In this document: positions 1-60,653 of the stretch, piece by piece
Layout: every line of letters begins with the position of its first letter
How positions within the stretch are numbered: position 1 is the stretch's first letter
The notes under the pieces: generated by a model
Seen by the model: the letters and a program-made list of their open reading frames with translations, nothing else
Databases searched by the model: none
Told to the model about the DNA's origin: nothing
Sequence record: PP391266.1
Strand: one strand, 5' to 3'
DNA length: 64,000 bases
Source of the DNA: Escherichia phage PJNS034
Made by a program: the position numbers and the translations under genes

Positions 1-91
1 GTTTGAGCATGTCTCAGAGTTTACTACTGTGACGGAACGTGGTGATGGTGCCTTTGGTTCTACTGGTAACACAATTGAGGGTTCCAAGTGA
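1..91 (+). CDS. 3' end of a gene that starts upstream of the window (last 29 codons)
   Basis: Open frame from base 2 to TGA at 89-91; contains in-frame copy of ACTACTGTGACG. Confidence 0.3.
   Translation, partial: FEHVSEFTTVTERGDGAFGSTGNTIEGSK
23..34 (+). repeat. 12-mer ACTACTGTGACG, copy 1
   Basis: Exact match, in frame (TTVT) in partial upstream ORF. Confidence 0.9.
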
Positions 92-387
92 TTGATAAAG
101 TTCTTGAACAATGTGCGTCGATTAATCAGCCTCGTTCGCTGGCTTCTGTGGCTCTTAAAGTTTCCGAAGAGACTGGTGAACTCGCACAAGCGGTCAACAA
201 GAACATCGGGAATGTTGTCGAAGAAGCAGCAGATGTAATCATCGCAGCAACTGACACGGCATTCCTCTATATCCGTGAAAAGTATGGTGCTGAAGAAGCT
301 ACGGCTGCTGGTGCTTTACTTGAAATGGCTGTAGCTGATAAACTCCAGAAGTGGAAAAATCTTTATTCTTTAGAAGGAAAGCGCTAA
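88..387 (+). CDS. MazG-like nucleotide pyrophosphohydrolase
   Basis: 99 aa; EETGELAQAV and EEAADVIIA motifs typical of MazG NTP-PPase; GTG start with GAGGG upstream. Confidence 0.55.
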   Translation: MIDKVLEQCASINQPRSLASVALKVSEETGELAQAVNKNIGNVVEEAADVIIAATDTAFLYIREKYGAEEATAAGALLEMAVADKLQKWKNLYSLEGKR

Positions 388-623
388 TGCTGAAAGTATA
401 TACCTCCCCTATGTGTGGCCCGTGTCATGTCCTGAAGAACCGCATCAAAGCGGCAACTGAAGCTGGTAAAGAACTTCCAGAACATGAAATTGTGGATATC
501 ACGAAGGTAGATAAATCTACTCTACCTGAAGGTGTGCGTACCATTCCAACCATCATCGACGAAGAAACTGGTGATGTGTTCACTGGTATTCAGGCAACCT
601 CTGAACGTATGGGTGTGAAGTAA
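387..623 (+). CDS. glutaredoxin/thioredoxin-fold redoxin (CGPC active site)
   Basis: 78 aa from internal ATG (RBS AGGAAAG); VYTSPMCGPCHVLK then TIPTIIDEETGDVFTG, glutaredoxin-fold pattern. Confidence 0.55.
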   Translation: MLKVYTSPMCGPCHVLKNRIKAATEAGKELPEHEIVDITKVDKSTLPEGVRTIPTIIDEETGDVFTGIQATSERMGVK

Positions 624-847
624 TGGAAGTACGTGACCTCCGTAACGTTCCGATTGACTCGTTGACTCCGCAGGAGATAGCTGGACGTCTGGCTCTGATT
701 TCTGATAGAATGAAGGAAGTCAGCGAGGAGTTCAGCGAGTTACAAGACATGTACTCCGCCCTCGTTGAAGAAACTCAACGACGTGTAAAACGAAAGGCGG
801 AAGAATATGATTCCATTACTCGCAGCGGCGATTCCAGCCGTAGCTAA
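623..847 (+). CDS. hypothetical protein
   Basis: 74 aa ORF, ATG start overlapping preceding stop. Confidence 0.35.
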   Translation: MEVRDLRNVPIDSLTPQEIAGRLALISDRMKEVSEEFSELQDMYSALVEETQRRVKRKAEEYDSITRSGDSSRS

Positions 848-1376: not shown

Positions 1377-1685
1377 ATGCCGTCAAGTCCTAACTATGTT
1401 CGTGACTACGACCAAGAACGCAAGACAGCCAAAAAGCGTGGTGAGACTGGTGTTGGTAAAAAGTCTGGTGACGCTCAGCGTCATCGTGCTCGTCGTAAGT
1501 TTGAGAAGGCAACAGGTCGCAAACTCGACAAAGACGAACACGTAGACCACAAACGTACAATTAAGAATGGAGGGACTAACAATCCTAAAAATCTTCGAGT
1601 GCGTAGCGCTTCTGATAATATGGCTGCTGGTGGTCGCAGTGGTAGTAAGGCGGGGAAAGCCGCCGGTGGTCGCAAAGGCAAGTAA
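1377..1685 (+). CDS. HNH endonuclease
   Basis: 102 aa; DEHVDHKRTIKNGGTNNPKNLRV matches HNH core; RBS GGAG before ATG. Confidence 0.55.
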   Translation: MPSSPNYVRDYDQERKTAKKRGETGVGKKSGDAQRHRARRKFEKATGRKLDKDEHVDHKRTIKNGGTNNPKNLRVRSASDNMAAGGRSGSKAGKAAGGRKGK

Positions 1686-1697: not shown

Positions 1698-1982
1698 ATG
1701 GGTAAAACAATTCGTCGTAAAGATGTAAAAGGTAATGGCGGTTACTACGAACACAAAGATGAAATCAGCATGGGTAAATCTACTGCTTATTATCACAGTG
1801 ACATGCCTTCTCGTGGAGGCCGCTGGAGAATGACCGGCCCTGCTAAGGAGGACGAAAAGGTAACTCGTCGCAACTACATGCACAACGTCAATGCTCGTGA
1901 TTTGTTGGATGAAGATGTTGACCTTGTTAATTGTGATAAGGTTTCTCGGAAACAAACCAACAAACACTATGCCCATTACTAA
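1698..1982 (+). CDS. hypothetical protein
   Basis: 94 aa ORF with RBS. Confidence 0.35.
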   Translation: MGKTIRRKDVKGNGGYYEHKDEISMGKSTAYYHSDMPSRGGRWRMTGPAKEDEKVTRRNYMHNVNARDLLDEDVDLVNCDKVSRKQTNKHYAHY

Positions 1983-1988
1983 AATCAA

Positions 1989-2016
1989 GGCTGGCTGAAA
2001 AGCTGGCCTTTCTTGT
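1989..2016 (+). terminator. rho-independent terminator (GNRA-loop hairpin plus T-run)
   Basis: GGCTGGCT-GAAA-AGCTGGCC followed by TTTCTTGTCTCT directly after stop of 1698-1982. Confidence 0.5.
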
Positions 2017-2028
2017 CTCTGAGGTATT

Positions 2029-2226
2029 ATGAAAGTCAGCATTGATTATATTATACGTTCTGCCATTCTTAAACATGGTGAACGGAAGTGGGCTTTGCTA
2101 GAAATCCAGCATAGCTTAGGTGTCAGTCGAACTCGTGCAAAAGAACTCTTCTTTGCTTTTACCTATCATGCAAATGAAGAAAACTTACAACGTATTGCTC
2201 GTGGTGAAAAGGTAGGTAAAATTTGA
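2029..2226 (+). CDS. hypothetical protein
   Basis: 65 aa ORF. Confidence 0.3.
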   Translation: MKVSIDYIIRSAILKHGERKWALLEIQHSLGVSRTRAKELFFAFTYHANEENLQRIARGEKVGKI

Positions 2227-2474
2227 GTATACAACGCATTATCGGTGAACTTGAAGATATCGAAGTTCGCATGGATTCTCTTGAAACAGAGAATGCTGAG
2301 TTACGTGATGAACTTAACCGTCTCGCTGAAGAACGTGATGAAGCTATCGAGGAGCGTGATGAAGCATTAGAGCAACTGGAAGTCGTAAACGACGCTCTTG
2401 CTCAGGGTGCAGATATCATTGCTCGTCAAAACGACGTGATTCGTGAATTAGAAAACGAACTCCAAGGAAGTTAA
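2223..2474 (+). CDS. hypothetical coiled-coil protein
   Basis: 83 aa, heptad-rich acidic sequence. Confidence 0.35.
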   Translation: MSIQRIIGELEDIEVRMDSLETENAELRDELNRLAEERDEAIEERDEALEQLEVVNDALAQGADIIARQNDVIRELENELQGS

Positions 2475-2475
2475 T

Positions 2476-4161
2476 TTGGCAAATATTTGGACAACTCCGC
2501 TCGCTTTGGAAGCGAAGATAGCAAACATTATCTCCAATCAAGGGAAACATGGTGTTAACTTCAACAAGGCCAAAGCAGCGTTCGGTGTGTTTGTTCTTGC
2601 AGAGAAGATTATAAACATCGACAAAGAGCTTGTCCCTATGCTTCCCATGATGATGCACGTGGGCACTGAATATAAGGCTCCATTCAAAGCGAATGGCGAC
2701 TTTAAGGTGTTTGTGCAGAAATATGCGGATAAGGTAGGGTTAAGTCGTTGCGATGTTGGTGGGCCGTTTACAGCGGTTCATTTCACACCATTTGACCCTT
2801 CCAAGACTGACCGCATGAAGCACGTCATGGCTGACGCTGGATGGGTTCCGGCAGTTTGGAATATCAAGAAGAATCCGATTCAAGAGTTGGATGGTCTTGG
2901 TTATATAGAGCGTCAGAATGCGGAAGCATTGCTTCTTGATAAGTATATCGAGAAGAACATCTTAGGTCATGGTGCTGCATGGACTGAGTTGATGTTGAAA
3001 GAGCTTAAATTCCGTGGACAGCGGAAGATTAGTAAGCTCAAAGAACACATCAGAAAGGCTCGTTATTGGCCTACTTCACCGAAGATTACACCAGATGAAG
3101 ACAAGTTCGTTGGTGATTCAAGAATCGGTGAATTAATTCAATCTCGTATGGTATGGTCACATCGTCGGTCATTACTTGAAGGATTGATTAAACTTGTCAG
3201 ACCAGATGGGAAGATTAGCGCTGATGCAAACAGTTGTGCAACACCCACTGCTCGTATGCGGCATCGTGGTGTGGTCAACATTCCTGCCGCTCGTGCTCCT
3301 TTTGGTTATTGGTGCCGAAGTCTTTTCATGGGAGACTATGACAAGACGGTTAAGAAAGGTTCTGTGTTCTATCCGTTTGGTAAGGAATTGCCAGAAGGAT
3401 TAAGACGTAAACCGGGCACAAACATTGTCGAGGAATACGACAAGAAGAAAGATAAATGGAAACACGCTGGTAAATATCGGAAGTTTGTTCCAGCGGGTCA
3501 ACATATCTTTGTTGGTTATGATGGTGCAGGTCTTGAACTTCGTATGTTGGCTCACTATGTTGGTGATGAAAACTTTACGAACCAGATTCTTCACGGTGAT
3601 ATTCATAGCCACAACCAGTCACTTGCTGGTCTTCCAACTCGTGATAACGCAAAGACGTTTATCTACGCATTCCTGTATGGTGCAGGTGATGCGAAAATCG
3701 GTTCTATCATCGGTGGTACTGCTGATGATGGTGCAGAAATCAAAGCTCGATTCATGAAATCACTTCCGAAACTTGCAGCACTGATTGAGCGTGTTCAACA
3801 GATTGCAGGAACTGATGGTTATGTCGAAGCGATTGATGGTCGTCGTTTGTATCTTCGTAAAGGTACGAATGGTAAGTATCAGACTCACAAAGCATTGAAC
3901 GTCTTGTTACAAGGTGCAGGTGCAATTGTCATGAAGTATGCGATGGCTTGGTTGGATTCTCAGATTAAGAAACAAGGTCTGAGGGCTTACAAGGTTATCG
4001 ACATGCACGATGAAGGGCAATTCTCAGTGCATCCTGATGATGTTCCAGCGGTTCGTGAACTGATGGAAAGTTGTGTTAAATGGGCTGGTGAGTTCTTGAA
4101 AATGAACTGTCCACTGGCATCCGATTCAATTGTTGGTCATGACTGGTTTGACACGCATTGA
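2476..4161 (+). CDS. DNA polymerase, family A, polymerase domain only (T7 gp5-like)
   Basis: 561 aa; motif A GYDGAGLELRMLAHY, motif B RDNAKTFIYAFLYGAG, motif C DMHDEGQF, C-terminal HDWFDTH; N-terminus aligns to T7 gp5 after its exonuclease domain; TTG start with AGGAAG RBS. Confidence 0.88.
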   Translation: MANIWTTPLALEAKIANIISNQGKHGVNFNKAKAAFGVFVLAEKIINIDKELVPMLPMMMHVGTEYKAPFKANGDFKVFVQKYADKVGLSRCDVGGPFTAVHFTPFDPSKTDRMKHVMADAGWVPAVWNIKKNPIQELDGLGYIERQNAEALLLDKYIEKNILGHGAAWTELMLKELKFRGQRKISKLKEHIRKARYWPTSPKITPDEDKFVGDSRIGELIQSRMVWSHRRSLLEGLIKLVRPDGKISADANSCATPTARMRHRGVVNIPAARAPFGYWCRSLFMGDYDKTVKKGSVFYPFGKELPEGLRRKPGTNIVEEYDKKKDKWKHAGKYRKFVPAGQHIFVGYDGAGLELRMLAHYVGDENFTNQILHGDIHSHNQSLAGLPTRDNAKTFIYAFLYGAGDAKIGSIIGGTADDGAEIKARFMKSLPKLAALIERVQQIAGTDGYVEAIDGRRLYLRKGTNGKYQTHKALNVLLQGAGAIVMKYAMAWLDSQIKKQGLRAYKVIDMHDEGQFSVHPDDVPAVRELMESCVKWAGEFLKMNCPLASDSIVGHDWFDTH

Positions 4162-4577
4162 TTCACCCTAATCATTTTAAAGGTGCGGCATCTGAAATGA
4201 AGGCTGCTGCACACTTCCTATCGAAAGGTTACGAAGTATTCTTTCCAGCTATCACACAAAGTGCGGCTGACTTCGTTGTAAAAAGTGAAAGGGGTTATGA
4301 AGGTGTTCAAGTCAAATCTGCAACACCTTTGAAGTCTGGTGAGGCGAACTACCTCCAAATACGACTACAAGGGAAACCTACTCCATATGCTACCCACAAC
4401 TATTTAGAAGGTGATTTCGAACATCTGGTAGTGGTTTATGGTGATATGATGTGGGACTTTCCGTGGGAATTAGTCAAAGACAAAACATCAATGACCTTCG
4501 GACGCCTGAATGAAGATGGAACGATATCTACATCAGGGCGAGGTGGTTATAACCCAGAGGATTACAGACTACGATGA
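4158..4577 (+). CDS. PD-(D/E)xK-type nuclease-like protein
   Basis: 139 aa; AAAHFLSKGYEVFFP...ADFVVKS...GVQVKS resembles Hjc/restriction-endonuclease-fold core. Confidence 0.35.
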   Translation: MIHPNHFKGAASEMKAAAHFLSKGYEVFFPAITQSAADFVVKSERGYEGVQVKSATPLKSGEANYLQIRLQGKPTPYATHNYLEGDFEHLVVVYGDMMWDFPWELVKDKTSMTFGRLNEDGTISTSGRGGYNPEDYRLR

Positions 4578-5019: not shown

Positions 5020-5312
5020 TGCAAAAGGAAACTACTGTGACGAACCCTATTAAACTGGAAGACGATGCAATCGCTGTTGTGGCATTCTCTGGCAAAGTTA
5101 TCAAGAAGTCCTTCGAAGACCTTGACCGACTGATTCCTGACGATGCTGTAGTATCTAACGAGCTTGTGGAGTTCATGAGCACTATGTGGGCAATCATCGA
5201 GAAAGGTGTTGAACCAGTGACACCTGAAATGATTGCTGAAATGGAGGCTGAGGAAGGTGAGATTCAGCCAGACGACCGTTCTGCAATTGAGGGAGAACGT
5301 AAAGATGGGTAA
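5019..5312 (+). CDS. hypothetical acidic protein
   Basis: 97 aa; contains in-frame 12-mer at codons 5-8. Confidence 0.35.
   Translation: MQKETTVTNPIKLEDDAIAVVAFSGKVIKKSFEDLDRLIPDDAVVSNELVEFMSTMWAIIEKGVEPVTPEMIAEMEAEEGEIQPDDRSAIEGERKDG
5031..5042 (+). repeat. 12-mer ACTACTGTGACG, copy 2
   Basis: Exact, codons 5-8 of ORF 5019-5312. Confidence 0.9.
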
Positions 5313-5438
5313 ATTCTTCCTGAAACTGGTTAAGATTTTCAACATGATGGTTGATATCTTTGTCCTGTATGTTCTGCTGTTTGGTCATATGTCAGCGAAC
5401 ATCGGTGGTAAACTTTACGAATTTAATGGACTGTTCCT

Positions 5439-8136: not shown

Positions 8137-8916
8137 ATGGCTAAGATTCCTTCTTCTCGTTCCGCTAAAGTTTCCAAAGTTCAGTACGAAGCAACCAAAC
8201 CGGGTCTGTACCCTGCACGTCTGGTTCGTTTCACCGGTCTGGGCACTCAGCCTCAGCCAGAGTTCCAAGGTCAGGCTAAAGACCCTGCACCGAAAGTAGC
8301 TGTAATGTTTGAGTTGTATGACCCGCAGACAGCGAAACCTCTGGATGTTATCGGTGTGAACATCGAAACGGAAGAGAAGGTGGCACGTCCTTCTTGTGTG
8401 TTCCAAGACTACTTCCTGTTCCCAGGCGCTACTCGTGGTAAAGTCTTCGAGTTGACTCAGGCTCTGGATGCAAGCATGGAAAAAGTTCCAGATGATTTCG
8501 AATGGTTCCTGTCTCGTCTCGGTGCTCCAGTTCAGGTTCAGGTAGGCAACTACAAGAAGAAAGATGGTTCTGTTGGTGTTAAAGTTGTTTCCGTAACAGG
8601 TGTCAACTCTTTCGTTTCCAACGCAATGGAACCTGCTCGTTCTGAACTGGTTGGCTTTGACCCATACGATGATAACGTTGAGAAGTTCGAACGTGCTTAT
8701 GCTCAGATGTTCCCATTCCAGCGTACCATGCTGAAAGATGCACTGGATGCGAAACACATTCCTCTGGCTGGTACTGAACCAGTTAAGATTGACGATAACC
8801 CAGCTAACACTGAAAACCGTCAGACTTCCAAGCCGGAAACTACTGTGACGCAAACTGGTTCTGCTCCAAGCGAACCGACTGGTAATTGGGAAGATGACGA
8901 CGACCGTCCTTTCTAA
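8137..8916 (+). CDS. single-stranded DNA-binding protein-like (acidic C-terminal tip)
   Basis: 259 aa; C-terminus WEDDDDRPF resembles the acidic DDD-IPF / terminal-Phe tail of SSB and T7 gp2.5; strong RBS. Confidence 0.5.
   Translation: MAKIPSSRSAKVSKVQYEATKPGLYPARLVRFTGLGTQPQPEFQGQAKDPAPKVAVMFELYDPQTAKPLDVIGVNIETEEKVARPSCVFQDYFLFPGATRGKVFELTQALDASMEKVPDDFEWFLSRLGAPVQVQVGNYKKKDGSVGVKVVSVTGVNSFVSNAMEPARSELVGFDPYDDNVEKFERAYAQMFPFQRTMLKDALDAKHIPLAGTEPVKIDDNPANTENRQTSKPETTVTQTGSAPSEPTGNWEDDDDRPF
8839..8850 (+). repeat. 12-mer ACTACTGTGACG, copy 3
   Basis: Exact, codons 235-238 of SSB-like gene. Confidence 0.9.
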
Positions 8917-10487: not shown

Positions 10488-11512
10488 TGAGCAAAATCCC
10501 CGTATGTAAGACAACACGACCTACGGTGGATTTAGCACTCATTGACGCAGACGTACTGCGTTACGAATTAGGGGCTGTGCAACTAGACCATCCTTATATC
10601 AAGGGTGAGAAGGTTCCAGCCCCTTCCTCGTTTGTTGAGGGCTTAGTTCAAGACCGTATTGAAACTATTCTGGACAGAACTGGTGCGAAAGACTTCTTAT
10701 TGTTCCTCACAGGGCCGGGAAACTTCCGGTTTGATATTGCCAAACAGCAACCATATAAAGGCAACCGAGAAGATTTTGAAAAGCCTTTCCATTGGAAGAC
10801 TGTTGACCGTTACCTCCGAACCGTTTATCCCTCCAAAATCCGTGAAGCATTCGGTAACGAGGCAGATGATGAATTGGGCATTACTCAATTACGTTCTGTC
10901 CTCGCAGGGGATAAGGATAACACCTGCATCGCTTCTCGTGACAAAGACCTGAGAACAGTGGAAGGATGGCATTACTCTTGGGCATGTGGTGAAGACCAGC
11001 CTGAGAAACCACTACGTTACATCACTCAGCTTGAAGGTTATCGCTTCTTCTTCCAACAGATGCTTACTGGTGATAACACTGATAACATCATTGGTTGTGG
11101 TAAAAAGAAAGAAGTGATGTGGGGTGGTAAGCTCATGATGCGGCGTAAAGGCGTGGGCAAGAAAACTGCTGAGAAGTTACTTGCAGAGCTTGAGAACCAA
11201 CAACAAATGTACGATGTTGTTCGTGAACAGTATGTCGAAGTGTTTGAGGATGAAGCTGATACAGTGATGCTCGAACAAGCTCGGTTATTGTTTATTGGAC
11301 AGACTGAGAAACAACAATTTAAATGGCACTGGATTGAGGTGGTTGAATATGGAATTGGCTCCGAAGAAAGCGAAGTTGTGGAAGGAAAAGAACCTGAAGG
11401 GACGTTGGATGTTCCTGAGGAAAATCGACGGAGTGAGAGCACTTCGGAACCTAGACCCAACGATTCCAGCGAAGTATGTGAGCCGGAATGCGAAACCTCT
11501 GTACAATCTTGA
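10487..11512 (+). CDS. 5'-3' exonuclease (T7 gp6-like)
   Basis: 341 aa; LALIDADVLRY, YKGNRE, EADDELG, SRDKDLRTV, TGDNTDNIIGCG align to conserved blocks of T7 gene 6 exonuclease; C-terminal about 55 aa overlap the ligase gene. Confidence 0.7.
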   Translation: MSKIPVCKTTRPTVDLALIDADVLRYELGAVQLDHPYIKGEKVPAPSSFVEGLVQDRIETILDRTGAKDFLLFLTGPGNFRFDIAKQQPYKGNREDFEKPFHWKTVDRYLRTVYPSKIREAFGNEADDELGITQLRSVLAGDKDNTCIASRDKDLRTVEGWHYSWACGEDQPEKPLRYITQLEGYRFFFQQMLTGDNTDNIIGCGKKKEVMWGGKLMMRRKGVGKKTAEKLLAELENQQQMYDVVREQYVEVFEDEADTVMLEQARLLFIGQTEKQQFKWHWIEVVEYGIGSEESEVVEGKEPEGTLDVPEENRRSESTSEPRPNDSSEVCEPECETSVQS

Positions 11513-12047
11513 CCACTTGGAGTTTGATGATGCTGAAATCTTTAATCAAAATTGGGAAACTTCCGTTTCAATGGTGCGTACTCATTGTGCGGCTCCTGTT
11601 CCTGCTGATTGCGTTTATCGTCTTGGTGATGGTCAGACCGATTCACGATTATACTTGTTCACGGTGCAAGACCCAACCGAAGAGTTCATTCGGAAGCATC
11701 TGGAAGAAGCTCTGGCGAAAGGTGATGAAGGCTTAATATTAAGGGAGGCCGATGTTGACGACCCGAAATGGCTCAAAGTCAAAAATAAAGAAACTCATGA
11801 CGTGGTGGTTACGGGTTATCAGCCGGGCACCGGTAAGCATGAAGGACGGATGGGTGCTCTACTTACGACGAGAGGCAAAGTTGGTACAGGCTTCACAGAC
11901 AGTGAACGAGACTACTGGCAGCAACGCTGGGAAGAGGGTACTGTCGTAGGTGTTACGATTGAGGTGGAATGTATGGAGTTAACTTCCACTGGTAAATTCA
12001 GACACCCACGCTTTATCCGTGAACGCCTTGATAAAGATGGCGAATAG
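11349..12047 (+). CDS. ATP-dependent DNA ligase (compact)
   Basis: Motif I KIDGVR, motif IV-like DEGLILR, motif V WLKVK, motif VI FRHPRFIRERLDKD; ATG at 11349 with GAGGTGG RBS; only about 233 aa. Confidence 0.7.
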   Translation: MELAPKKAKLWKEKNLKGRWMFLRKIDGVRALRNLDPTIPAKYVSRNAKPLYNLDHLEFDDAEIFNQNWETSVSMVRTHCAAPVPADCVYRLGDGQTDSRLYLFTVQDPTEEFIRKHLEEALAKGDEGLILREADVDDPKWLKVKNKETHDVVVTGYQPGTGKHEGRMGALLTTRGKVGTGFTDSERDYWQQRWEEGTVVGVTIEVECMELTSTGKFRHPRFIRERLDKDGE

Positions 12048-13466: not shown

Positions 13467-13887
13467 GTTAAAAGGTACTGACTATGACTCACGTCTTGAG
13501 AAAAGGCTGCATGAGGCGCTTCCCGTCCTCAACCACCATCCAGCGAAAAGGCCGTATGTTCGACACCATACCTACGAGCCAGATTTCGAAGTACAAGGAA
13601 ACAAGACATATCTTGTTGAAGCCAAAGGTTACTTCCAAGACCGTAACGAACTTGGCAAGTACCTCCCCATTGCGGAGTCTCTGGGCGATAGTGCTGAGTT
13701 GGTATTTGTGTTTGAGAATGCCGACAAACCAATCCACTTCCAAGCCAAACGTAAGGATGGAAGCAAAATGACACATCGTGAGTGGTGTGTTAAGAATGGA
13801 TTTCAAGTCTTTGACGAGGATGAGTTCCGAGTATGGATTCCAAGTGTTACTACTGTGACGGAATCGGGAGACACAGAGCTTTCGTAA
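13426..13887 (+). CDS. endonuclease I / Holliday-junction resolvase (T7 gp3-like)
   Basis: HTYEPDF and LVEAKG (T7: HTYTPDF, FVETKG) catalytic blocks, C-terminal HREWCVKNGFQVFD; ATG 13426 with GGAGGA RBS. Confidence 0.7.
   Translation: MAIHGRYFRQKPAELKGTDYDSRLEKRLHEALPVLNHHPAKRPYVRHHTYEPDFEVQGNKTYLVEAKGYFQDRNELGKYLPIAESLGDSAELVFVFENADKPIHFQAKRKDGSKMTHREWCVKNGFQVFDEDEFRVWIPSVTTVTESGDTELS
13849..13860 (+). repeat. 12-mer ACTACTGTGACG, copy 4
   Basis: Exact, codons near 3' end of endonuclease I gene. Confidence 0.9.
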
Positions 13888-43048: not shown

Positions 43049-43103
43049 GTCCATACTTCTGTGGGGATATAGGTAAGAGATGCTACATCTTACACTACTT
43101 ATA

Positions 43104-43125
43104 CCTATTATTTCCCTTCGGAATA
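43104..43125 (-). promoter_or_regulatory. conserved intergenic element, copy D (inverted)
   Basis: Minus strand reads TATTCCGAAGGGAAATAATAGG; contains TATTCC-GAAG-GGAATA hairpin. Confidence 0.4.
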
Positions 43126-43793
43126 TAATGTTTAGGGTACAGGAAGAAGTGCCATATGACAAGACTTATTTACCAATTGAATTACAAATTCAGTGAATTT
43201 ATAAGTGTGAGATAACAAAGTGTGGATATTGCTCACTTTTTAACCAGAAACGTAAATTTCACTTGAGCGGTATGTGGCATATCAGCTTTAGCATAATGTT
43301 CAAAAAGGGGGAACGGGTTCCGCTCATGTTCCGGCGTGTGAATGAGGCGTGTAGACTACCACTAGCCCCTACCCTGAGTCAATACCCTCACTGGTCTGAT
43401 GAGTGTGACTGCTCAAGTAGTAACCGTGTGATGCCGTGTGATGAGTACCCATCGTGCATAGTTATTCATGATAATTTATTTTTGGATAGCCTGAATAAAT
43501 AATAGCCAGTGACCCGTTAGAATCTGCGTGCGTGTCTGATACTGCCTGAGTTATACCTCCATAACGCCAACGTTTAAACGGTGTATTGATAACGGGTAAC
43601 AAGCCAGCGACAAGTGAATAAATATTCCAAGAGATAGCATATCTAATCAATCTATCTTCTCTTTATTCCTTTTACAGTGTAATTCTTATTTGTTTATAAG
43701 TAATAATTCTCCTCGACCTATTGACAATTACCGTCGAGTAAATTACGCGTGTGTTTCATTACGTCTTAAAGAAATGATTTGTTTGTTTTGCTA

Positions 43794-43821
43794 TTGACTT
43801 TTTAACTCATTCGTTTAATAT
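43794..43821 (+). promoter_or_regulatory. sigma70-like promoter candidate
   Basis: TTGACT, 16-17 nt spacer, TAATAT. Confidence 0.4.
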
Positions 43822-43876
43822 AGCTCCCCGTTGAAACGCAGAACATCGCGGAGTAAACAAGTTAATCACTAAGTGG

Positions 43877-43905
43877 TTGACTGAATCGGGTTAGTATGTT
43901 TTAAT
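43877..43905 (+). promoter_or_regulatory. sigma70-like promoter candidate
   Basis: TTGACT, 17 nt spacer, TTTAAT. Confidence 0.35.
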
Positions 43906-44086
43906 GCTTACCGATTCAAACGCTCTTTAAAAATGTGGTCTGTCTTTAGGTGGTGTTTAACATCATTACTACAAGGCGCTTAGTTAGTTATCTGGTTTTG
44001 ATTCCTGTTTCATTAGTGATTCAGGCGGATTGATAAAGCATCTTCAATAAGTCTTTAACAGTTCGATACTTCGAAGAAATTAACGA

Positions 44087-44114
44087 TTGACAGCGTACTA
44101 GATTCCTGTAAGAT
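44087..44114 (+). promoter_or_regulatory. sigma70-like promoter candidate
   Basis: TTGACA, 16 nt spacer, TAAGAT. Confidence 0.4.
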
Positions 44115-44232
44115 AGACCACGTTTTAACGCTCTTTAACAATATGAATCATTAACGCTTAAACGTTAGTTTAATCAGACGTTATCAAGTGAAGCTGAAAA
44201 GTAACACGATAACAAATGATGAAAATAAACGG

Positions 44233-44260
44233 TTGACAGCGTGAAATGATTCGGTATAAT
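44233..44260 (+). promoter_or_regulatory. strong sigma70-like early promoter
   Basis: Consensus TTGACA, 16 nt spacer, consensus TATAAT, about 480 nt upstream of first early gene. Confidence 0.6.
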
Positions 44261-44741
44261 GAGCGCCATCGAATGACAGAACGTTGTCAGACGATAGCCG
44301 GATAAGTGGATAACTTATAACGGCAGTTCGATAAAGTAGTGTGGTAGCGGGTAGCGGTATGTAACACGGATAATCTACGGATTAACGGCTTATTTGTTGC
44401 TTGCTTAAAGCATAAAACGTCGGGCGGCACGATGGGAGAAGTGCATAAAATCAATTAGGCTCCCTGACTCTTTAACAATTAGGAAACTACGCACCACAAT
44501 TAACGTTGGATAACGTAAAGAGTGGGTTAATTTAGGGTGATTCCCTGCGTAGGCTTGTCGAGCTGATAACAGCGGTATGTGATGGACGCTTATATACTCC
44601 CTCCATGATAGTGTATGACTGATTCCACCTAGGCCAAAGTGAAAGGGCGATAACGAATAGCAAGTAACAATCTCGTTTGATATGGGCATTTAATAGTGAG
44701 TGTCCAGATTAAACGATAAAACTGAATTGAGGATTAAACCT

Positions 44742-46568: not shown

Positions 46569-46580
46569 ACTACTGTGACG
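46569..46580 (+). repeat. 12-mer ACTACTGTGACG, copy 5
   Basis: Exact, 3 nt after stop of methyltransferase-like gene. Confidence 0.9.
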
Positions 46581-48469: not shown

Positions 48470-48789
48470 AAAAGATTTTTACTACTGTGACGATTCTGGC
48501 TGGCCTGTTTGCTTCATCGGCTAACGCCTTTGTTTGCACTGGTACTGCTACCCATAAAGACGGTGGCACGGCTGACATTATCGTTAACACCAACGATATG
48601 GTGTTTGATGATGCTGTCGGTCTGTATCGTGCTGAAACTCAGTGGCATCCTAAGCTGGCCTCTACGCTGTATGTAGACCAGTCTGAAAAGACAATCGAAG
48701 GTGTTGGCTTCCGTGGCATGTACACCGCCGTAGCAGTCGATAGCAAAGACGTTATCATGATTGCTGACGACCTTGTTTGCTATGAGTAA
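48466..48789 (+). CDS. secreted/periplasmic protein (signal peptide)
   Basis: MKKIFTTVTILAGLFASSANA-F: Sec signal with AxA cleavage site. Confidence 0.45.
   Translation: MKKIFTTVTILAGLFASSANAFVCTGTATHKDGGTADIIVNTNDMVFDDAVGLYRAETQWHPKLASTLYVDQSEKTIEGVGFRGMYTAVAVDSKDVIMIADDLVCYE
48481..48492 (+). repeat. 12-mer ACTACTGTGACG, copy 6
   Basis: Exact, codons 6-9 of signal-peptide protein. Confidence 0.9.
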
Positions 48790-50102: not shown

Positions 50103-50774
50103 GTGAAACGTCCTGAAACTGCAATCCGACCGTTTATGAAGTCCAGCATTGAGAAGCTGGAAGCTGGTCAACTGTTCTATGTTCGCAATGAGAAAGGTAG
50201 TGGTTATCGTCCTCGTTGCTTTGTTGGTGTGTTGCCTGATGGTAAGACGTATCAGTATCAGTCTTACATGAACAACGATATCTTTGATTCGGTTTATGAA
50301 GAACCGCATCTTGACGACCAGCCTGTGTTTGTCCCGAAACCATTTGCAATGAAAATCATGCAACGTGGTAAGGCACTGGCTGAGGAAGTTGCTGAGGTAT
50401 TCAGCGAGATTCCAGCGAACGAAATTCAACGTTCGAATCTGGATGAACTGTTCGACCGTCTGCCTGATGAAGTTATCGACTACGACGCTTATGAAGCGAT
50501 TCGTCAGGCTGTACGTCGTTTGGGTTGGCAGGACGCATCAATTGTTCGTCGTCAGAATGGCGGCTGGATGGTTGATGATGAAGCGTTTGAATATATGTAC
50601 AACGCTGTGACTGGCAAGGCTGAGCGTGAAGCAGCGGATACTACTGTGACGATTGCTCCGGTGGTTGATGTGGTTGATAGCTCGATTAGCCGACCAAAAG
50701 CTAATTCATTCGTTAAGAAGCTGAGCGGTTTCTTGTTTGGTAATTCTAAGCAAGGGGATAGCTGCGGCATCTAA
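50103..50774 (+). CDS. hypothetical protein
   Basis: About 223 aa; start uncertain (GTG 50103 or ATG 50136); contains in-frame 12-mer. Confidence 0.4.
   Translation: MKRPETAIRPFMKSSIEKLEAGQLFYVRNEKGSGYRPRCFVGVLPDGKTYQYQSYMNNDIFDSVYEEPHLDDQPVFVPKPFAMKIMQRGKALAEEVAEVFSEIPANEIQRSNLDELFDRLPDEVIDYDAYEAIRQAVRRLGWQDASIVRRQNGGWMVDDEAFEYMYNAVTGKAEREAADTTVTIAPVVDVVDSSISRPKANSFVKKLSGFLFGNSKQGDSCGI
50640..50651 (+). repeat. 12-mer ACTACTGTGACG, copy 7
   Basis: Exact, within ORF 50103-50774. Confidence 0.9.
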
Positions 50775-54312: not shown

Positions 54313-54360
54313 AATATCATCTGCCAATAACGGCAACTTAAACTGAACGAGGAAACTACT

Positions 54361-55170
54361 ATGACGATTCGCCTGATTACTCTTGGTGCTGACCCTGAAA
54401 CTATTGTTGCTCGCAACGGTGTTCCAACTCACGCTATTGGTCTTATCGGCGGTACTAAGGAAGAACCACGTAAGATTATCCGTGGTGGTCGTGAAGTTGG
54501 TGCGGTGCAGGAAGATAATGTCCTGTATGAGTTCAACATCATGCCACACGATACTCGTCAGGGATTCATTGACAACATTCAGCAGATGTTGGAAGTGGGT
54601 CGTGAGATTCTGGGTGATGGTTACGAAATCACTAATAAGACTTCTCACATCTTCTCTGATGAAGACATGGCTCATTTCCCTGACTCAGCGTTTATCTTCG
54701 GTTGTGAACCGGATTTCTTCGCTGGTAATGGTGAGATGAATCCGAAGCCTGCTGCACCGTGGCCGGGTCTGCGTACCGCAGGTGGTCATGTTCACTTCGG
54801 GTTCGATGAGCGTGTAGTTCGTGATGATGAGAATGTTCGTTCTCTGATTCAACTGTGCGATATGTATATGGCGTTGCCGTCAATGCTTCTGGACACTGAC
54901 GACCTGCGTAAAGAACTGTATGGTAAGGCCGGTGCATTCCGTCCGAAAGCATATGGTGCTGAATATCGTACACTGTCAGGTTTCTGGATTCATAATCCTG
55001 AAAATACTGGCTTCGTGTTTGACCAAGCGCAGAAAGCGTATGATGCGTTGGCAACTGGTCTGGGTCGTGAGATGTTGGCACGTTTCCCATACGAACTGGT
55101 TGTCGATATCATCAACAGCAATGACCGTGGACGTGCTGAACGTGCCCTGAAAGTTATGCAGGTTGCATAA
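54361..55170 (+). CDS. amidoligase-like (GCS2/carboxylate-amine ligase-like) protein, divergent paralog
   Basis: 269 aa; GGHVHFGFD (H-x-H) and GAEYRTLSGFW (E-x-R) as in GCS2-type ligases; N-terminal E-x-E replaced by D-P-E. Confidence 0.4.
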   Translation: MTIRLITLGADPETIVARNGVPTHAIGLIGGTKEEPRKIIRGGREVGAVQEDNVLYEFNIMPHDTRQGFIDNIQQMLEVGREILGDGYEITNKTSHIFSDEDMAHFPDSAFIFGCEPDFFAGNGEMNPKPAAPWPGLRTAGGHVHFGFDERVVRDDENVRSLIQLCDMYMALPSMLLDTDDLRKELYGKAGAFRPKAYGAEYRTLSGFWIHNPENTGFVFDQAQKAYDALATGLGREMLARFPYELVVDIINSNDRGRAERALKVMQVA

Positions 55171-55518: not shown

Positions 55519-55542
55519 TTTAAACTGAACGAGAGAACTAAA

Positions 55543-56151: not shown

Positions 56152-56975
56152 TGATTATTGCTGACATTTTAGGGCATGGTCGTGGGTCGGATGTTGTTGA
56201 TACGCATCCGTTGATTGTTGGTCGAGGCCGTGTAGGACTCGAATTAGAACTGGAGAATATGCCAAATGCTCGACAAGCTGCTGGTTGGACAGTTACTGGT
56301 GACGGTTCTCTGCGTAATAGCGGCGTGGAATATGTACTCCGTGGTGCTCAGGGAGGTATGGAGTTATTTAATTCGATACTTTCTCTGGAAGAAGCACTCA
56401 TGGCACATCAATGTGATGCTAACCTTCGCTGCTCTACTCACGTTCACCTTGATATACGTCGGCTCACTGTGGCTCAACTCAAGCGTTTACTTCTGGCTTA
56501 TACAGTCTTTGAGCCATTAATCTTTGAGTTGTCCGGTGCGCATCGTCGTACTAACAACTTCTGTCCGTCGTTTAGTTTCGCTCAGCAACAAATTCGTAAG
56601 CTGAGTAACAACTGGCATCATGATGGTGAACGATTCCTTGCTCGTATTGTGGAAGGTCGTGACCGCCAATCCAGTGATAAGTATTCAGCACTGAATCTGG
56701 TTCCAATCTTCACTCAGGGTTCTGTAGAGTTCCGTGGTGCAGAAGCGAAGCCAAGTGCAGGTAAGATGATTCGTCTGGCTAACCGTATTCTAAGTCTGTA
56801 TGACTTAGCGGTTAACTCTGATATGAATCAGTCTGATGCTGAGTTCATTAACTCACTGGCGAACCTTGATGTTCAACAGGCATTGATGGGTACGATTCCT
56901 CGTGACTTCGAACTCAGCGAAGAACTGGTGAATGAAGGACGTGTCTTAGCGTTCGATATTATCTCTCTGGGGTGA
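56151..56975 (+). CDS. amidoligase (GCS2-like carboxylate-amine ligase)
   Basis: 274 aa; VGLELELE (E-x-E), CSTHVHLD (H-x-H), GSVEFRGAE (E-x-R): the three signature blocks of gamma-glutamyl-cysteine-synthetase-2-like amidoligases. Confidence 0.55.
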   Translation: MIIADILGHGRGSDVVDTHPLIVGRGRVGLELELENMPNARQAAGWTVTGDGSLRNSGVEYVLRGAQGGMELFNSILSLEEALMAHQCDANLRCSTHVHLDIRRLTVAQLKRLLLAYTVFEPLIFELSGAHRRTNNFCPSFSFAQQQIRKLSNNWHHDGERFLARIVEGRDRQSSDKYSALNLVPIFTQGSVEFRGAEAKPSAGKMIRLANRILSLYDLAVNSDMNQSDAEFINSLANLDVQQALMGTIPRDFELSEELVNEGRVLAFDIISLG

Positions 56976-56976
56976 C

Positions 56977-57192
56977 ATGAGCTGGAACGAACGAGAGTAT
57001 CGTAAACCAAAGTTGGGCACTGTATGTGTCCACTTCGAACCTTCGTATAAGTCAACCTTTGGAAGTACGAAGAAGTTCCCTAACGCATCGTTCTACTTGA
57101 GTACGAACGGTGTAATCATCATCCGTGATATGGATGGTGACAACATCTGTGCATACCCTGAAGGTGTGTGGCTGAATGTTGAAATGAAGTGA
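56977..57192 (+). CDS. hypothetical small protein
   Basis: 71 aa ORF. Confidence 0.3.
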   Translation: MSWNEREYRKPKLGTVCVHFEPSYKSTFGSTKKFPNASFYLSTNGVIIIRDMDGDNICAYPEGVWLNVEMK

Positions 57193-57202
57193 TTAACTCA
57201 AG

Positions 57203-57224
57203 CCCTTCTTCGGGAGGGTTTTAT
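57203..57224 (+). terminator. terminator/attenuator hairpin in conserved cassette (UUCG loop)
   Basis: stop-TTAACTCAAG, CCCTTC-TTCG-GGAGGG, TTTTATGG. Confidence 0.5.
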
Positions 57225-57278
57225 GGTAATCATTACCACAAACTATTGAAACTAACTATTGAACTTGAGGAAAGTATT

Positions 57279-58871
57279 ATGTGCGGAATCGTTGGAATTA
57301 TGCGTGGCGTTATGACTGAAGGTATGGTGGACATGTTTGAACAACTGCTGTATGCAGATGTGTTCCGTGGCCCGCACTCCACTGGCGTCTATCGTGTTAA
57401 TAAAGATGGTCAATCAGGGTTGTATAAGGATGCAGTACCTGCGTCTTTATATCTTGGCTCGAAAGGCTGGGATGATTTACGTGGGAATCTGAATGGAACT
57501 GCTGGTCATCAGGCACTGTCTCAAGTTTATGTTGGTCATAACCGTTGGGCAACTGTAGGTGCAGTTAACGCTGTGAACTCACATCCATTCAAGTGCGGTA
57601 ACATCACGATGGTACACAATGGTACTGTTGCGAAGTGGCGTTTGAATGACCACCTGAAGTATGACGTTGATAGTCATGCGGTGTGTGCGATGTTGGATTC
57701 ACATGGTCTGGCTGAAACTCTGAAAGTTCTGGATGGTAAGTTTACTCTGGTGTGGCATGACGCATCTGATAACACCATGAACTTTATCCGTAATGCAGAA
57801 CGTCCTCTGCACATGGTTGAGTTCACTGATGGTGGTTGGGCGTTTGCATCAGAAGGTGAGATGTTAACGTGGATTAATGGTCGTCGTAAGACCCCGTTTG
57901 GTATTAAACGTGCTTTCGAACTGCCAGTTGGCTTCCATCATAAATTCCAGTTATCCGCGAGCAAAGTAGAGCTTGCGGAGGTCGTTAAGTACGAACTCCC
58001 AAAGTTCACCAGCTACGCCAGCAACAGCACGTATTATCCAAACCGAAGCTCAGTCGCAAGCAGCAGCGCAAGCTCAACAAACTCAGAAAGCGCAACCGCT
58101 AGACGTGTGCGTCTGATGAAAGAGTGGGGCATTGACGTTGGAGACCGCAAAGATGTAGAGAACATGATTGTGTCTCTGGATAACATCGCGTTCACAGCGT
58201 ACTCAACCAATGCAGCATCAGGTCGTATTGATGCAGACGCATGGGGTTACGATGAAGCTGTTGATGCCTGTGATGCTGGTCATATGGAAATTGACTGTAA
58301 GCGTGGTGGTAAAACTGAAGATGTTCAGGTAACAGTTTACGGTGTTGATACTGTTAAGTGGAAAGACAACTACTCTCAGGGCGACCGTCTGTACGGTAAG
58401 ATTGACAGTGTGTTTGAATCCACTGAGCATGGCAAGACTCGTCTTCGTATCACTTTGAAACCACTGACTCTGTGTACTGAGTTGGCTGATGGCGTTGAAG
58501 CCTTTAATGAGAAAGTGTTCCCGCTCCTCATTAAGAAAGAGGCCGAAAAGGTTGATGCCGACAAAAGTAAATCAGATGTTGCAGGAAGCACTGGAAGCGC
58601 AGGAACTGCAACTGGTCAGGGAACTCAGTTATCGGTTGTAGTGGATAACACTGCAAAAAAGCCGGAAGGTACGGACTCATCAAGCGGCTCGCCGAACTTG
58701 TTCAACATGTCCGCAATTCCAATGAGTCTTAAAGACTTGCGTGAAGACAAGCTGAGTTGTGCTTGGTGCGGAAATGCAATCCACGAACATAACTACGAAA
58801 TGTCTGATATGTTCTTTAAATCTCACATCTGCCCAGATTGTGCCAAGGAGTTACCGGGTTATGGCGACTGA
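57279..58871 (+). CDS. class-II glutamine amidotransferase (Ntn hydrolase) domain protein with C-terminal extension and Zn-ribbon
   Basis: N-terminal Met-Cys-Gly-Ile-Val-Gly (catalytic Cys after Met removal), Ser-rich linker, C-terminal CAWCG...CPDC. Confidence 0.55.
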   Translation: MCGIVGIMRGVMTEGMVDMFEQLLYADVFRGPHSTGVYRVNKDGQSGLYKDAVPASLYLGSKGWDDLRGNLNGTAGHQALSQVYVGHNRWATVGAVNAVNSHPFKCGNITMVHNGTVAKWRLNDHLKYDVDSHAVCAMLDSHGLAETLKVLDGKFTLVWHDASDNTMNFIRNAERPLHMVEFTDGGWAFASEGEMLTWINGRRKTPFGIKRAFELPVGFHHKFQLSASKVELAEVVKYELPKFTSYASNSTYYPNRSSVASSSASSTNSESATARRVRLMKEWGIDVGDRKDVENMIVSLDNIAFTAYSTNAASGRIDADAWGYDEAVDACDAGHMEIDCKRGGKTEDVQVTVYGVDTVKWKDNYSQGDRLYGKIDSVFESTEHGKTRLRITLKPLTLCTELADGVEAFNEKVFPLLIKKEAEKVDADKSKSDVAGSTGSAGTATGQGTQLSVVVDNTAKKPEGTDSSSGSPNLFNMSAIPMSLKDLREDKLSCAWCGNAIHEHNYEMSDMFFKSHICPDCAKELPGYGD

Positions 58872-59154
58872 TAAAATTGTAATTCGTATGCCGAAAGACG
58901 ACATTGAATGTGAGCGGAAATATCCGTTCACTTACTTCATGAATGCAGCGCTGCGTGGTATGCAGCGTCGCTACTCTGAACAAGCGTCGGCAAAGTTTGG
59001 TAGTGAAGTTGAGATTCTATTCCCAACTGCATTATCAAAAATGATTCATGACCACATGGTCACTCTGTATCAACAGGAAGGATTCGAACTCGCTGAAGAA
59101 GATTTCGAAGACTCCGAACAATACCGCAAATATCTGAAACTAATTAAGGGCTAA
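58861..59154 (+). CDS. hypothetical protein
   Basis: 97 aa from ATG overlapping upstream stop. Confidence 0.35.
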   Translation: MATDKIVIRMPKDDIECERKYPFTYFMNAALRGMQRRYSEQASAKFGSEVEILFPTALSKMIHDHMVTLYQQEGFELAEEDFEDSEQYRKYLKLIKG

Positions 59155-59159
59155 AACAA

Positions 59160-60653
59160 ATGCTGCGTATCTTCAACTACAACAACGGTTCTCAAGGTCT
59201 GGGTGCTCTGCGTGAACATGTAGAGCCATTGATTCGTGAGATGAATACTCATCGTGGTTTCCGTAACATTCGTCCGGTTATGGGTAGCGAGAATGGTTCT
59301 GCTCGTCTGTTTCAGGCGACTAACCGCTTCATTATGAACTGGGGTTCTTCGCAACCCCTGAACACTGATGAAAGCAACTTCGTTCTCAACAAACCGGAAG
59401 CTGTTGGTTTAGCAACTCATAAACTCCGCTTCTTCCAACATGTTCACCAGTGGAACCAAGAGAAGATTGCTCAGGGTGTGAATGGCCTGACTGTTCCGAT
59501 TCCTGAGTGGACAACTTCTCGTGATGAAGCTCAGACTTGGGCAGGGCATGACCATCTGGTTTATGCCCGTCAACGTCTGCAAGGTCATAGCGGTGAAGGT
59601 ATCGAAGTATACGGTATCAATCAGGTTGTTGAACGTGCTCCACTGTACACCAAAGGCATCATCGGTGCTCGTCGTGAGTATCGTGTTCATGTCATTGCTG
59701 GTCAGGTGGCACTGGTTCAGTTGAAGAAACGCCGCAATGGTGGTGAGGCTGTGGGCAATGGTAATGACCATGTTCGTAACCTCGGCTCTGGTTGGGTGTA
59801 TGCAGTAAGTGATGCTCGTCCATCACCAGTCGTATTGAGTGCAGCACAGAATGCAGTTCGTGCTCTGGGTCTGGACTTTGGTGCGGTAGACATTATCGCT
59901 AAAGGTCGTAAAGGTCAGGAGCGTGAGTGCTGGGTGTTGGAAGTTAACACTGCACCGGGTCAGCGTGGTGATACTACTGTGACGCTGTATGCTCGTGCTG
60001 TTGCATCGGCATATGCAATCTGGATGAATCGTGATAGCGTTGACGTCCGTGATTTAGGAGGTGTCAAAGCTGCATGGGAAACACTTCCTTGGCTGAACGA
60101 TGAAACCTTCCTTGCTCTGATGCGTGATGAAGGTGCAGATGGTTCGGTACTTCTGCGTTCTCAGCGTGAAACTCAGGCAGCAGAGGCAGAAATGCCTAAC
60201 ACTGACGATGATGTGGCGGCAGATGAAAACTTTGCCCTTCCTGCTGATGAACTGACACCTGCTCGTGCAACCTCTGGTGCTCATGTAGTTCACACTGGTA
60301 CTCGTTGGGTTGATGTAGAAGCAGCACCTCAAGTTCGTGCTGAGCCTGTACGTCGTCGTGACGGTGAGCCAATGCCGTTCAATGGTAATCCATTCGATGC
60401 ACGTATTCGTCGTGAACCTGCACCACGTCCTGCACCTGAACCGGTTGTAATGCCAGAACGTCGTGTCATGTTGTCTCGTCTGGGACAGAATGACCCACAG
60501 AACGAACAGTTCGTGGTATTCACATGGAACGGTCGTCGTGAAGTCGGTGTAGTCAATACTCGTCTGGGTGTTGTTTACATGGCTGGTAGCGAAGTTCAAC
60601 TTCCACTGGCTCAGGTTGATTTGATTGCGGTAGTTGATACCGAAATTCGTTAA
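59160..60653 (+). CDS. ATP-grasp family ligase (RimK-like) with C-terminal extension
   Basis: 497 aa; GEGIEVY, EYRVHVIAG, LGLDFGAVDII, WVLEVNTAPG (E-x-N) ATP-grasp blocks; about 200-aa extension. Confidence 0.5.
   Translation: MLRIFNYNNGSQGLGALREHVEPLIREMNTHRGFRNIRPVMGSENGSARLFQATNRFIMNWGSSQPLNTDESNFVLNKPEAVGLATHKLRFFQHVHQWNQEKIAQGVNGLTVPIPEWTTSRDEAQTWAGHDHLVYARQRLQGHSGEGIEVYGINQVVERAPLYTKGIIGARREYRVHVIAGQVALVQLKKRRNGGEAVGNGNDHVRNLGSGWVYAVSDARPSPVVLSAAQNAVRALGLDFGAVDIIAKGRKGQERECWVLEVNTAPGQRGDTTVTLYARAVASAYAIWMNRDSVDVRDLGGVKAAWETLPWLNDETFLALMRDEGADGSVLLRSQRETQAAEAEMPNTDDDVAADENFALPADELTPARATSGAHVVHTGTRWVDVEAAPQVRAEPVRRRDGEPMPFNGNPFDARIRREPAPRPAPEPVVMPERRVMLSRLGQNDPQNEQFVVFTWNGRREVGVVNTRLGVVYMAGSEVQLPLAQVDLIAVVDTEIR
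59973..59984 (+). repeat. 12-mer ACTACTGTGACG, copy 8
   Basis: Exact, codons 272-275 of ATP-grasp gene. Confidence 0.9.

Follow-up and report, generated by a model that had tools for sequence, protein, structure and literature searches.

A one-strand motif in Escherichia phage PJNS034 probably marks the sites of a phage-encoded nicking endonuclease

Escherichia phage PJNS034 (sequence record PP391266.1) carries a short motif that is repeated on one strand only and matches the sequence at which the DNA of Pseudomonas phages such as tf is interrupted. We analysed 64,000 nucleotides (nt) of its ~65.7 kb genome, hereafter ‘the window’, and found nine such sites, eight of them identical over 12 nt and the ninth a close variant. 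Our analysis indicates that these are probably the recognition sites of a sequence- and strand-specific nicking endonuclease encoded by the phage. The TACT/RTGMC nick system is already known from Pseudomonas phages; what appears to be new is the enterobacterial host group, and the phage lineage, in which we now find it.

Results

The motif is confined to one strand and one transcription arm

An exhaustive search of both strands found the 12-mer ACTACTGTGACG eight times, always on the plus strand, at 23, 5031, 8839, 13849, 46569, 48481, 50640 and 59973, exactly the eight positions listed in an earlier reading of this DNA (the sequence-only reading). Dinucleotide-preserving shuffles gave a mean count of 0.01, and none of 100 attained eight. 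This 12-mer is the most repeated 10- to 12-mer within the window and, as the sequences around its copies are mutually unrelated, it is a short autonomous motif rather than a piece of a longer repeat. A mismatch-tolerant search of both strands, which the sequence-only reading had proposed for one-mismatch variants, added a ninth related copy, ACTACTATGACG, at 54355 on the plus strand; when two mismatches were allowed, two further matches were found in the window, both at chance level.

The degenerate forms TACTRTGMC and WACTRTGAC, searched on both strands, each recovered the identical nine sites, all plus-stranded, where about 2.0 consensus sites are expected on both strands together and where none of 100 shuffles attained nine. 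The two strands are far from having a similar density of the motif, with nine copies on plus and none on minus. All nine lie in the plus arm, which makes up ~52% of the window, giving by simple arithmetic a probability of 0.525^9 = ~0.003 under uniform placement. The minus-strand structural arm at 14–43 kb contained no copy in either orientation in exact, mismatch and consensus searches, so that an absence previously noted by eye now holds for both orientations.

The motif matches mapped nick sites of Pseudomonas phages

Since T5, phage genomes have been known to carry fixed single-strand nicks. The 14 single-strand interruptions that Glukhov et al. located in phage tf of Pseudomonas putida are confined to the top strand and occur at 5'-TACT/RTGMC-3'; these nicks are ligatable, are present in >90% of molecules at one exact bond and always have a purine as the base 3' of the nick (PMC3517423). 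Corresponding one-strand sites are present in LUZ24, PaP3 and phiMR299-2 (PMC3517423). In LUZ24-like phages of P. aeruginosa, Essoh et al. saw reads pile up at GTACTATGAC or GTACTGTGAC (GTACTRTGAC), and Dougherty et al. (2025) reported 13 Nanopore coverage drops at WACTRTGAC in phage Rembedalsseter, with the motifs dispersed through coding sequences (PMC11780129). The census in the latter study, the sole published one that we found, detected enrichment in ~61 Pseudomonas phages and in none of the other genomes compared, and the biological purpose of the nicks is described as unestablished in every phage that has them (PMC11780129). Our literature search found no paper naming the enzyme of the TACT/RTGAC system.

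The published consensus forms fit all nine window sites, and TACTATGAC is itself a proven nick site, sci1, in tf (PMC3517423). A G follows the motif at 11 of the 14 tf sites and at eight of nine in LUZ24, so that the shared core is the 10-mer TACTRTGACG; the enterobacterial phages carry an additional conserved AC 5' of this core. The consensus and the strand-specific interruptions of LUZ24/PaP3/tf-type phages, as given in the sequence-only reading, agree with the published tf mapping, and the bidirectional layout that it took to be shared is indeed present, the window having the same convergent two-arm arrangement as tf and LUZ24. Together, these comparisons support its suggestion that the motif marks nicks.

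Sites are conserved in the nearest relative, TacPo2

The phage collection contained a single close relative, Pantoea phage TacPo2 (65,025 bp). Its genome is about 75–85% identical to the window in nucleotides and aligns collinearly with it, individual blocks having ~64–90% identity. It has ten copies of the motif on one strand and none on the other, nine of them syntenic with the nine window sites. Within the codons ACT ACT RTG, third positions are identical between the two phages in 27 of 27 cases (34 of 36 with the ACG codon included), compared with a third-position identity of 69.5% in the well-aligned coding flanks (P ~5e-5). On this comparative evidence the sites are kept by selection on the DNA sequence, with reading frames and start codons adapted around them; selection at the DNA level had been proposed from the window by itself, and both the syntenic sites and the frozen synonymous positions bear it out. 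Site positions are not shared with tf, LUZ24 or Salmonella phage 7-11 and the motif itself is, so sites turn over while the specificity stays fixed. A literature search on TacPo2, on PJNS034 or on Grimontviridae together with nicks found nothing relevant.

One of the conserved sites, at 5031 (site 2 below), sits in an 18-nt island, AAGGAAACTACTRTGACG, that is kept in TacPo2 (19041) with non-homologous DNA on either side. The island lies within window 5019–5042 and TacPo2 19030–19052, and the neighbouring gene cassettes differ and are unalignable. This predicted nick site thus falls exactly at a mosaic junction, a placement that would fit nick-stimulated recombination.

Reading frames and gene boundaries accommodate the motif

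As had been described, the seven genic 12-mers are all read as Thr-Thr-Val-Thr and the copy at 46569 starts 3 nt after a stop codon; the ATG variant conforms to the same frame (T-T-V/M-T). The accompanying claim that coding constraints allow only this frame was too strong: tf, LUZ24 and 7-11 also use a Tyr-Cys/Tyr-Asp frame, so that the frame accommodates the DNA motif rather than following a rule.

A second remark, which placed seven of the eight copies no further than ~125 nt from a gene boundary, holds approximately (the exact copies are 59, 18, 71, 22, 10, 18, 128 and 674 nt away, and the variant 0 nt) but is unremarkable (P = 0.22), because 59% of positions in these short-gene arms satisfy the same criterion. 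Within 30 nt of a boundary there is mild enrichment only, with five of nine sites against a background of 20% (P = 0.019); a greedy gene model supplied the background in this test. The RTG of the motif often serves as the first start codon, at window 54361, at TacPo2 3310, 19045 and 60634, at tf 2103, 5268 and 20795 (tf_04, tf_15 and tf_41) and at 7-11 83744, and the A variant TACTATGAC accompanies the use of ATG as the start. On the simplest reading, a fixed 10–12-mer is accommodated at least cost in gene starts, gene ends and spacers.

The motif is patchily distributed among enterobacterial phages

We counted TACTRTGAC in each genome on the early-gene strand and on the other strand. The early-gene strand carries nine copies in the window, ten in TacPo2, 12 in tf (14 with the GCC variant) and nine in LUZ24, with none on the other strand in any of these four. 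Salmonella phages 7-11 and PKM.Hi.22.6 each have 11 on the early-gene strand (12 in 7-11 with the GCC variant) and one on the other; Cronobacter phage GAP52 has one and none, and phiEco32 two and one. Most of the 7-11 copies are the 12-mer ACTACTGTGACG, and both 7-11 and PKM.Hi.22.6 share the AC 5' flank; all three phiEco32 copies (27941 on plus, 63070 and 70592 on minus) have a TTTTAG or TTCTAG 5' flank and a 3' G. A search for strand bias in related genomes, suggested in the sequence-only reading, returned one-strand enrichment in TacPo2, 7-11 and PKM.Hi.22.6. Judged from these counts, the TACT/RTGAC motif system is patchily but clearly present in enterobacterial phages, and a literature search found no report linking Grimontviridae or 7-11 to nicks, or the motif to enterobacterial phages.

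A second repeated sequence of the window, the 9-mer CTTCTGGAG at 14279–20213 and at 38911, is also strand-biased, with nine copies on plus and two on minus. Seven of these lie in constant phase within the 1610-aa giant virion gene at 14022–18854, where the coding strand reads (S/T)-P-E-(E/A). We considered it as a second DNA signal and rejected it as a peptide-level repeat; it is not conserved, having three copies in TacPo2 and none in 7-11.

A small HNH-like protein is a candidate nickase

The window encodes at 1377..1685 (plus strand) a 102-aa protein of HNH (His-Me finger)-like type, with the motif VDH...N..NL...N, which belongs to phrog_4590 (‘unknown function’; E = 2e-35). We regard it, tentatively, as the best candidate for the nickase of the TACT/RTGAC system, with the balance of the sequence evidence falling somewhat short of that assignment. 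Its match to Pfam HNH_3 has E = 0.002 and 18.2 bits, below the cut-off of 24.8, and HNH and endonuclease VII families were otherwise weak matches only. The protein is 64% identical to its tf homologue and 62% to that of LUZ24, the highest values of all proteins shared with those phages (DNA polymerase, 45–49%; terminase, ~39–40%), and by these comparisons it seems to be the most conserved protein of the whole LUZ24/tf/7-11/phiEco32 assemblage. In the tf and LUZ24 records, the coding sequences annotated at this place (tf_29, ~16126–16416; LUZ24 gp26, ~15622–15933, ‘hypothetical, transmembrane’) are in a different frame from the conserved open reading frame (ORF), which appears to start at TTG in both; the most conserved small protein of the clade is therefore effectively unannotated.

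Across 22 homologues, H36, H58, N68, N72, L73 and N81 are invariant and D57 is nearly so, a pattern that reads as an H-N-N type His-Me finger signature, presumably the same kind of site as that used by the nicking enzyme I-HmuI. An AlphaFold model of moderate confidence (mean predicted local distance difference test score, 66.6) places a beta-beta-alpha core in strands 54–58 and 73–77 and helix 78–85. Foldseek returned mostly HNH proteins among its top matches, including the Gme HNH nickase, none of them significant (E of 0.2 or worse), and single-sequence and profile searches against the PDB gave nothing significant.

The HNH family is present in 249 phage records. In 43 IMG/VR loci centred on a homologue, the motif occurs 61 times on the HNH strand and six times on the opposite strand, with ~5.5 expected per strand; many of these loci have no copy within ±10 kb, and one-mismatch and de novo k-mer scans of the motif-poor HNH-bearing loci found no variant motif. 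One IMG/VR contig (GC 38%) has five copies in 6.2 kb (1827–8014) on the coding strand of a minus-strand gene arm; its HNH-like ORF at 9673–9966 (plus strand), whose own motif is degenerate (ELHHP...), belongs to the divergent arm, so that the architecture of this contig differs.

All phiEco32-like homologues examined have D57G (DVGH), beside the putative catalytic histidine. We considered this as a residue separating motif-rich from motif-poor phages and rejected it: the change is characteristic of the phiEco32-like phages, yet GAP52, also motif-poor, keeps VDH intact. If the HNH-like protein is the nickase, a 10-bp specificity frozen across Pseudomonas and Enterobacterales phages would be expected because many sites would have to co-evolve with a single enzyme.

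Proposed mechanism and alternative explanations

We hypothesize that the phage enzyme would, by homology with tf, cut the plus strand between T and R of 5'-(AC)TACT/RTGAC(G)-3', and that the resulting nick, with 3'-OH and 5'-P ends, could be ligated. Virion DNA would accordingly be packaged with about nine interruptions at fixed positions, all in the strand that is coding (non-template) for the early/middle arm; transcription of the early and middle genes would thus not be blocked. Nicks would be made late in infection and, we infer, resealed after entry by the phage ligase (11295–12047) or by host ligase. As to their purpose, we suggest with low confidence a link to recombination or to the polarity with which DNA is packaged or ejected, given that the sites thin out with distance from the early end; the conserved island at the mosaic junction (site 2) is compatible with a role in recombination.

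Several points weigh against this proposal or against the HNH-like protein as its enzyme. The nicks of tf/LUZ24-like phages were mapped physically, whereas the window sites are known from sequence alone. All selected sites are sense in transcribed genes, so the sequence by itself would also allow a role at the RNA level; the boundary bias of the sites is weak; and ~1.7 kb of the genome lies outside the window. The HNH assignment of the 1377–1685 product rests on sub-threshold matches. The family is intact in motif-poor GAP52 (one copy) and is present also in phiEco32 (three copies) and at many IMG/VR loci with no copy, so the presence of the gene does not predict motif enrichment and, with relatives holding one to three copies, the nickase role is a lead and not a result. 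Phyletic profiling found no gene restricted to motif-rich genomes; its universal nuclease-type genes were those for the HNH-like protein, the 5'-3' exonuclease and terminase, and endonuclease I was missing from phiEco32 only.

Among other explanations for the repeats, the motif could act in mRNA as ACUACUGUGACG, either as a processing or pause signal or as a translation-initiation context in which an RTG start stands behind a Shine-Dalgarno-like GGA. The sense orientation of all nine sites in the plus arm, the mild clustering within 30 nt of gene boundaries (five of nine, P = 0.019) and the use of RTG as a first start codon in genes of the window, TacPo2, tf and 7-11 would all agree with this. 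We nevertheless think it improbable, as the identical sequence is a proven DNA nick site in tf, including at sci13 and sci14, which are antisense to late genes (PMC3517423); several window sites are deep in genes or near 3' ends, with no evident initiation or processing function; the motifs of Dougherty et al. are spread through coding sequences (PMC11780129); and start codons are more simply the cheapest spot for a fixed 10-mer. Strand specificity, conservation and restriction to one transcription arm would also suit binding by a phage transcription factor, or a promoter element recognized by an RNA polymerase holoenzyme under phage direction, and an ECF-like sigma factor is annotated in phiEco32, 7-11 and GAP52. 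The sites, however, are inside ORFs in eight of nine cases, with one intergenic, and form a single block without the −35/−10 structure of the phiEco32 gp36 type, and the late arm, where phage-specific promoters are needed, has none. The distribution of sigma factors does not follow the motif either, for tf and LUZ24 have the motif without an annotated sigma factor, phiEco32 and GAP52 have the factor yet only one to three copies, and a Pfam scan of those window ORFs that were scanned gave no sigma domain. A transcriptional role is accordingly very unlikely in our estimate.

We hold it to be just as unlikely that the sites are preferred priming sites of a primase/helicase, with the interruptions as unsealed Okazaki-fragment junctions. 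The clade does encode a primase/helicase, the purine always found 3' of the tf nick is expected of a primer's first nucleotide, and the complement of the motif contains GTC, the core of T7-type primase sites (T7 gp4). Primase sites, however, are 3–5 nt long and the motif 10–12 nt, primer removal and gap filling would shift a nick that in tf is exact in >90% of molecules, and the nicks of phikF77 are repaired early and reappear late (discussed in PMC3517423). Less likely still, the repeats could be passive leftovers, whether scars or targets of mobile elements or homing endonucleases, or recurrent recombination junctions: non-homologous gene cassettes flank one site, which forms a conserved island, and relatives have several free-standing homing-type nucleases. 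Against this, all nine sites are syntenic, with synonymous positions frozen over ~20–25% nucleotide divergence, and tf, LUZ24, 7-11 and PKM.Hi.22.6 each show independent enrichment of the motif at positions that are not syntenic, so that syntenic retention and independent enrichment together argue for active maintenance. Genome termini were considered as related cut sites and rejected, the direct terminal repeat boundaries of tf and LUZ24 being unlike the motif.

Positions of the predicted nick sites

All nine predicted sites are on the plus strand, and each is given here with the bond at which the nick is expected and with the position of its TacPo2 counterpart. Site 1 (ACTACT/GTGACG, 23..34, nick at 28/29; TacPo2 14892) lies in a gene truncated by the left edge of the window, 58 nt ahead of the stop of that gene, and its counterpart lies 58 nt ahead of the TacPo2_25 stop. 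Site 2 (5031..5042, nick at 5036/5037; TacPo2 19041) is preceded by AAGGAA and includes a GTG at 5037 with which the ORF ending at 5312 may start; in TacPo2 the corresponding ATG is the annotated start of TacPo2_35. Site 3 (8839..8850, nick at 8844/8845; TacPo2 23337) is 67 nt ahead of the stop of ORF 8137–8916, and site 4 (13849..13860, nick at 13854/13855; TacPo2 28215) is 28 nt ahead of the stop codon with which the endonuclease I-like gene, and with it the plus arm, ends.

Site 5 (46569..46580, nick at 46574/46575; TacPo2 60630) is intergenic, 3 nt past the stop (TAG, 46563–46565) of ORF 45984–46565; going downstream from the early promoter region described below, it is the site met first. 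Site 6 (48481..48492, nick at 48486/48487; TacPo2 62775) forms codons 6–9 of ORF 48466–48789, and site 7 (50640..50651, nick at 50645/50646; TacPo2 64884) is 124 nt ahead of the stop of ORF 50055–50774. Site 8 is the variant ACTACT/ATGACG (54355..54366, nick at 54360/54361), which recurs identically at the syntenic TacPo2 position 3306; its ATG is the start codon of a COOH-NH2 ligase gene (54361–55170), with GAGGA 7 nt upstream. Site 9 (59973..59984, nick at 59978/59979; TacPo2 8884) is mid-gene in an ATP-grasp-like gene (59160–60653).

Genome context

Homologues of 16–17 window ORFs occur in tf and LUZ24 in the same order, at 21–64% identity. Judged on these, the window is a distant relative of tf and LUZ24 within the same broad assemblage and represents a distinct lineage by host, size and GC content; its nearest relatives are TacPo2 and Grimontviridae, and its terminase relatives are found in 7-11, GAP52 and phiEco32-type podoviruses. 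The plus arms encode a family A DNA polymerase, a 5'-3' exonuclease, an ATP-dependent ligase and a T7-type endonuclease I, and the minus arm encodes terminase, portal, capsid and tail genes. The ATP-dependent DNA ligase-like gene (11295..12047, plus strand; start codon uncertain) matches Pfam DNA_ligase_OB_2 (E = 1e-10) and DNA_ligase_A_C (E = 4e-8).

Between the arms is a non-coding region (43100..44700) with strong rightward sigma-70-type promoters, two of which lie at 44087–44260 in a non-coding stretch of 1.5 kb, one of them a perfect TTGACA-16-TATAAT (44233–44260). These two probably make up the early promoter region, beside the physical genome end, and a comparison with tf and LUZ24 at their left ends suggests that the end itself probably lies within 43100..44700. 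If it is placed at ~43.5 kb, the nine sites would fall at ~5, 8, 11, 17, 25, 34, 42, 47 and 55% of the genome, and would be denser near the early end and stop where the early/middle arm ends. On the same assumption, the first two window sites would resemble those of tf (4.5 and 7.6%), and the final one would resemble the final LUZ24 site, near 55%. The single GAP52 copy, at 73260 on the minus strand, is ~4.4% from the early end; the first sites of tf, LUZ24 and the window are at 4.5%, 4.2% and, with the end near 43.5 kb, ~4.7%.

A phiEco32-type cluster at window 54361–61311, with genes for a COOH-NH2 ligase, an amidoligase, a class-II glutamine amidotransferase, an ATP-grasp-like protein and a gamma-glutamyl cyclotransferase, is common to tf, LUZ24, phiEco32, 7-11 and GAP52, and holds the predicted nick sites at 54355 and 59973. 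Ten tRNA genes lie at 6138–6966 on the plus strand (Pro, Tyr, Lys, Ser, Ile, Ser, Asn, Met, Trp and Gln), and TacPo2 has eleven, syntenic with them. At 12166–13466, a nucleoside 2-deoxyribosyltransferase-like gene (a sub-threshold Pfam match) adjoins a gene for a PnuC-type nicotinamide mononucleotide transporter, a pair found also in GAP52 and not in tf, LUZ24 or phiEco32.

Discussion

These observations would widen the known range of the TACT/RTGAC nick motif to the enterobacterial phages PJNS034, TacPo2, 7-11 and PKM.Hi.22.6. With proteins only 21–64% identical to those of the Pseudomonas phages, the recognition sequence seems to be much older and more stable than the genomes bearing it. Comparative genomics narrows the choice of candidate enzymes to one tiny HNH protein that had escaped notice through annotation in the wrong frame, and phages of E. 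coli and Salmonella provide experimental systems for both the enzyme and the function of the nicks. If this protein is the nickase, the enzyme and the 50-year-old question of what the nicks are for would become directly testable in a tractable host. There is also a practical side, since the coverage drops, read pile-ups and sequencing stops that such nicks produce can pass for genome ends or for assembly problems.

Fixed one-strand interruptions in a linear virion genome with terminal repeats are also a feature of phiKMV-like phages (CGACNNNNNCCTA/CTCCGG) and of T5/BF23; their recognition sequences and lineages are unrelated to those of the window, and the phiKMV nicks are in the non-coding strand (PMC3517423). 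Small HNH nickases (I-HmuI/I-BasI, N.phiGamma and Gme HNH) make a single-strand cut at an asymmetric site with one His-Me finger site. The window protein has the H...N...N signature, but matches none of them significantly (best E = 0.2), lacks zinc-binding CxxC pairs and has no separate DNA-binding domain, only a basic N-terminal helix pair.

The closest comparison is with the tf/LUZ24-like phages (Bruynoghevirus, Krylovvirus and Rembedalsseter). The window differs from them in host (enterobacterial versus Pseudomonas), in genome (~65.7 kb and 45% GC versus ~45 kb and 52–54% GC for tf and LUZ24), in the 5' flank of the motif (AC in the 12-mer consensus versus G or S in LUZ24 and tf) and in late-arm copies (none versus two in tf and one in LUZ24). 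It shares with them the convergent two-arm layout, modules of replication, amidoligase and structural genes, and sites that lie on the early/middle coding strand in 9–14 copies per genome, denser toward the early end and often overlapping start codons, and the 9–10 nt core of those sites, TACTRTGAC(G), is identical in both.

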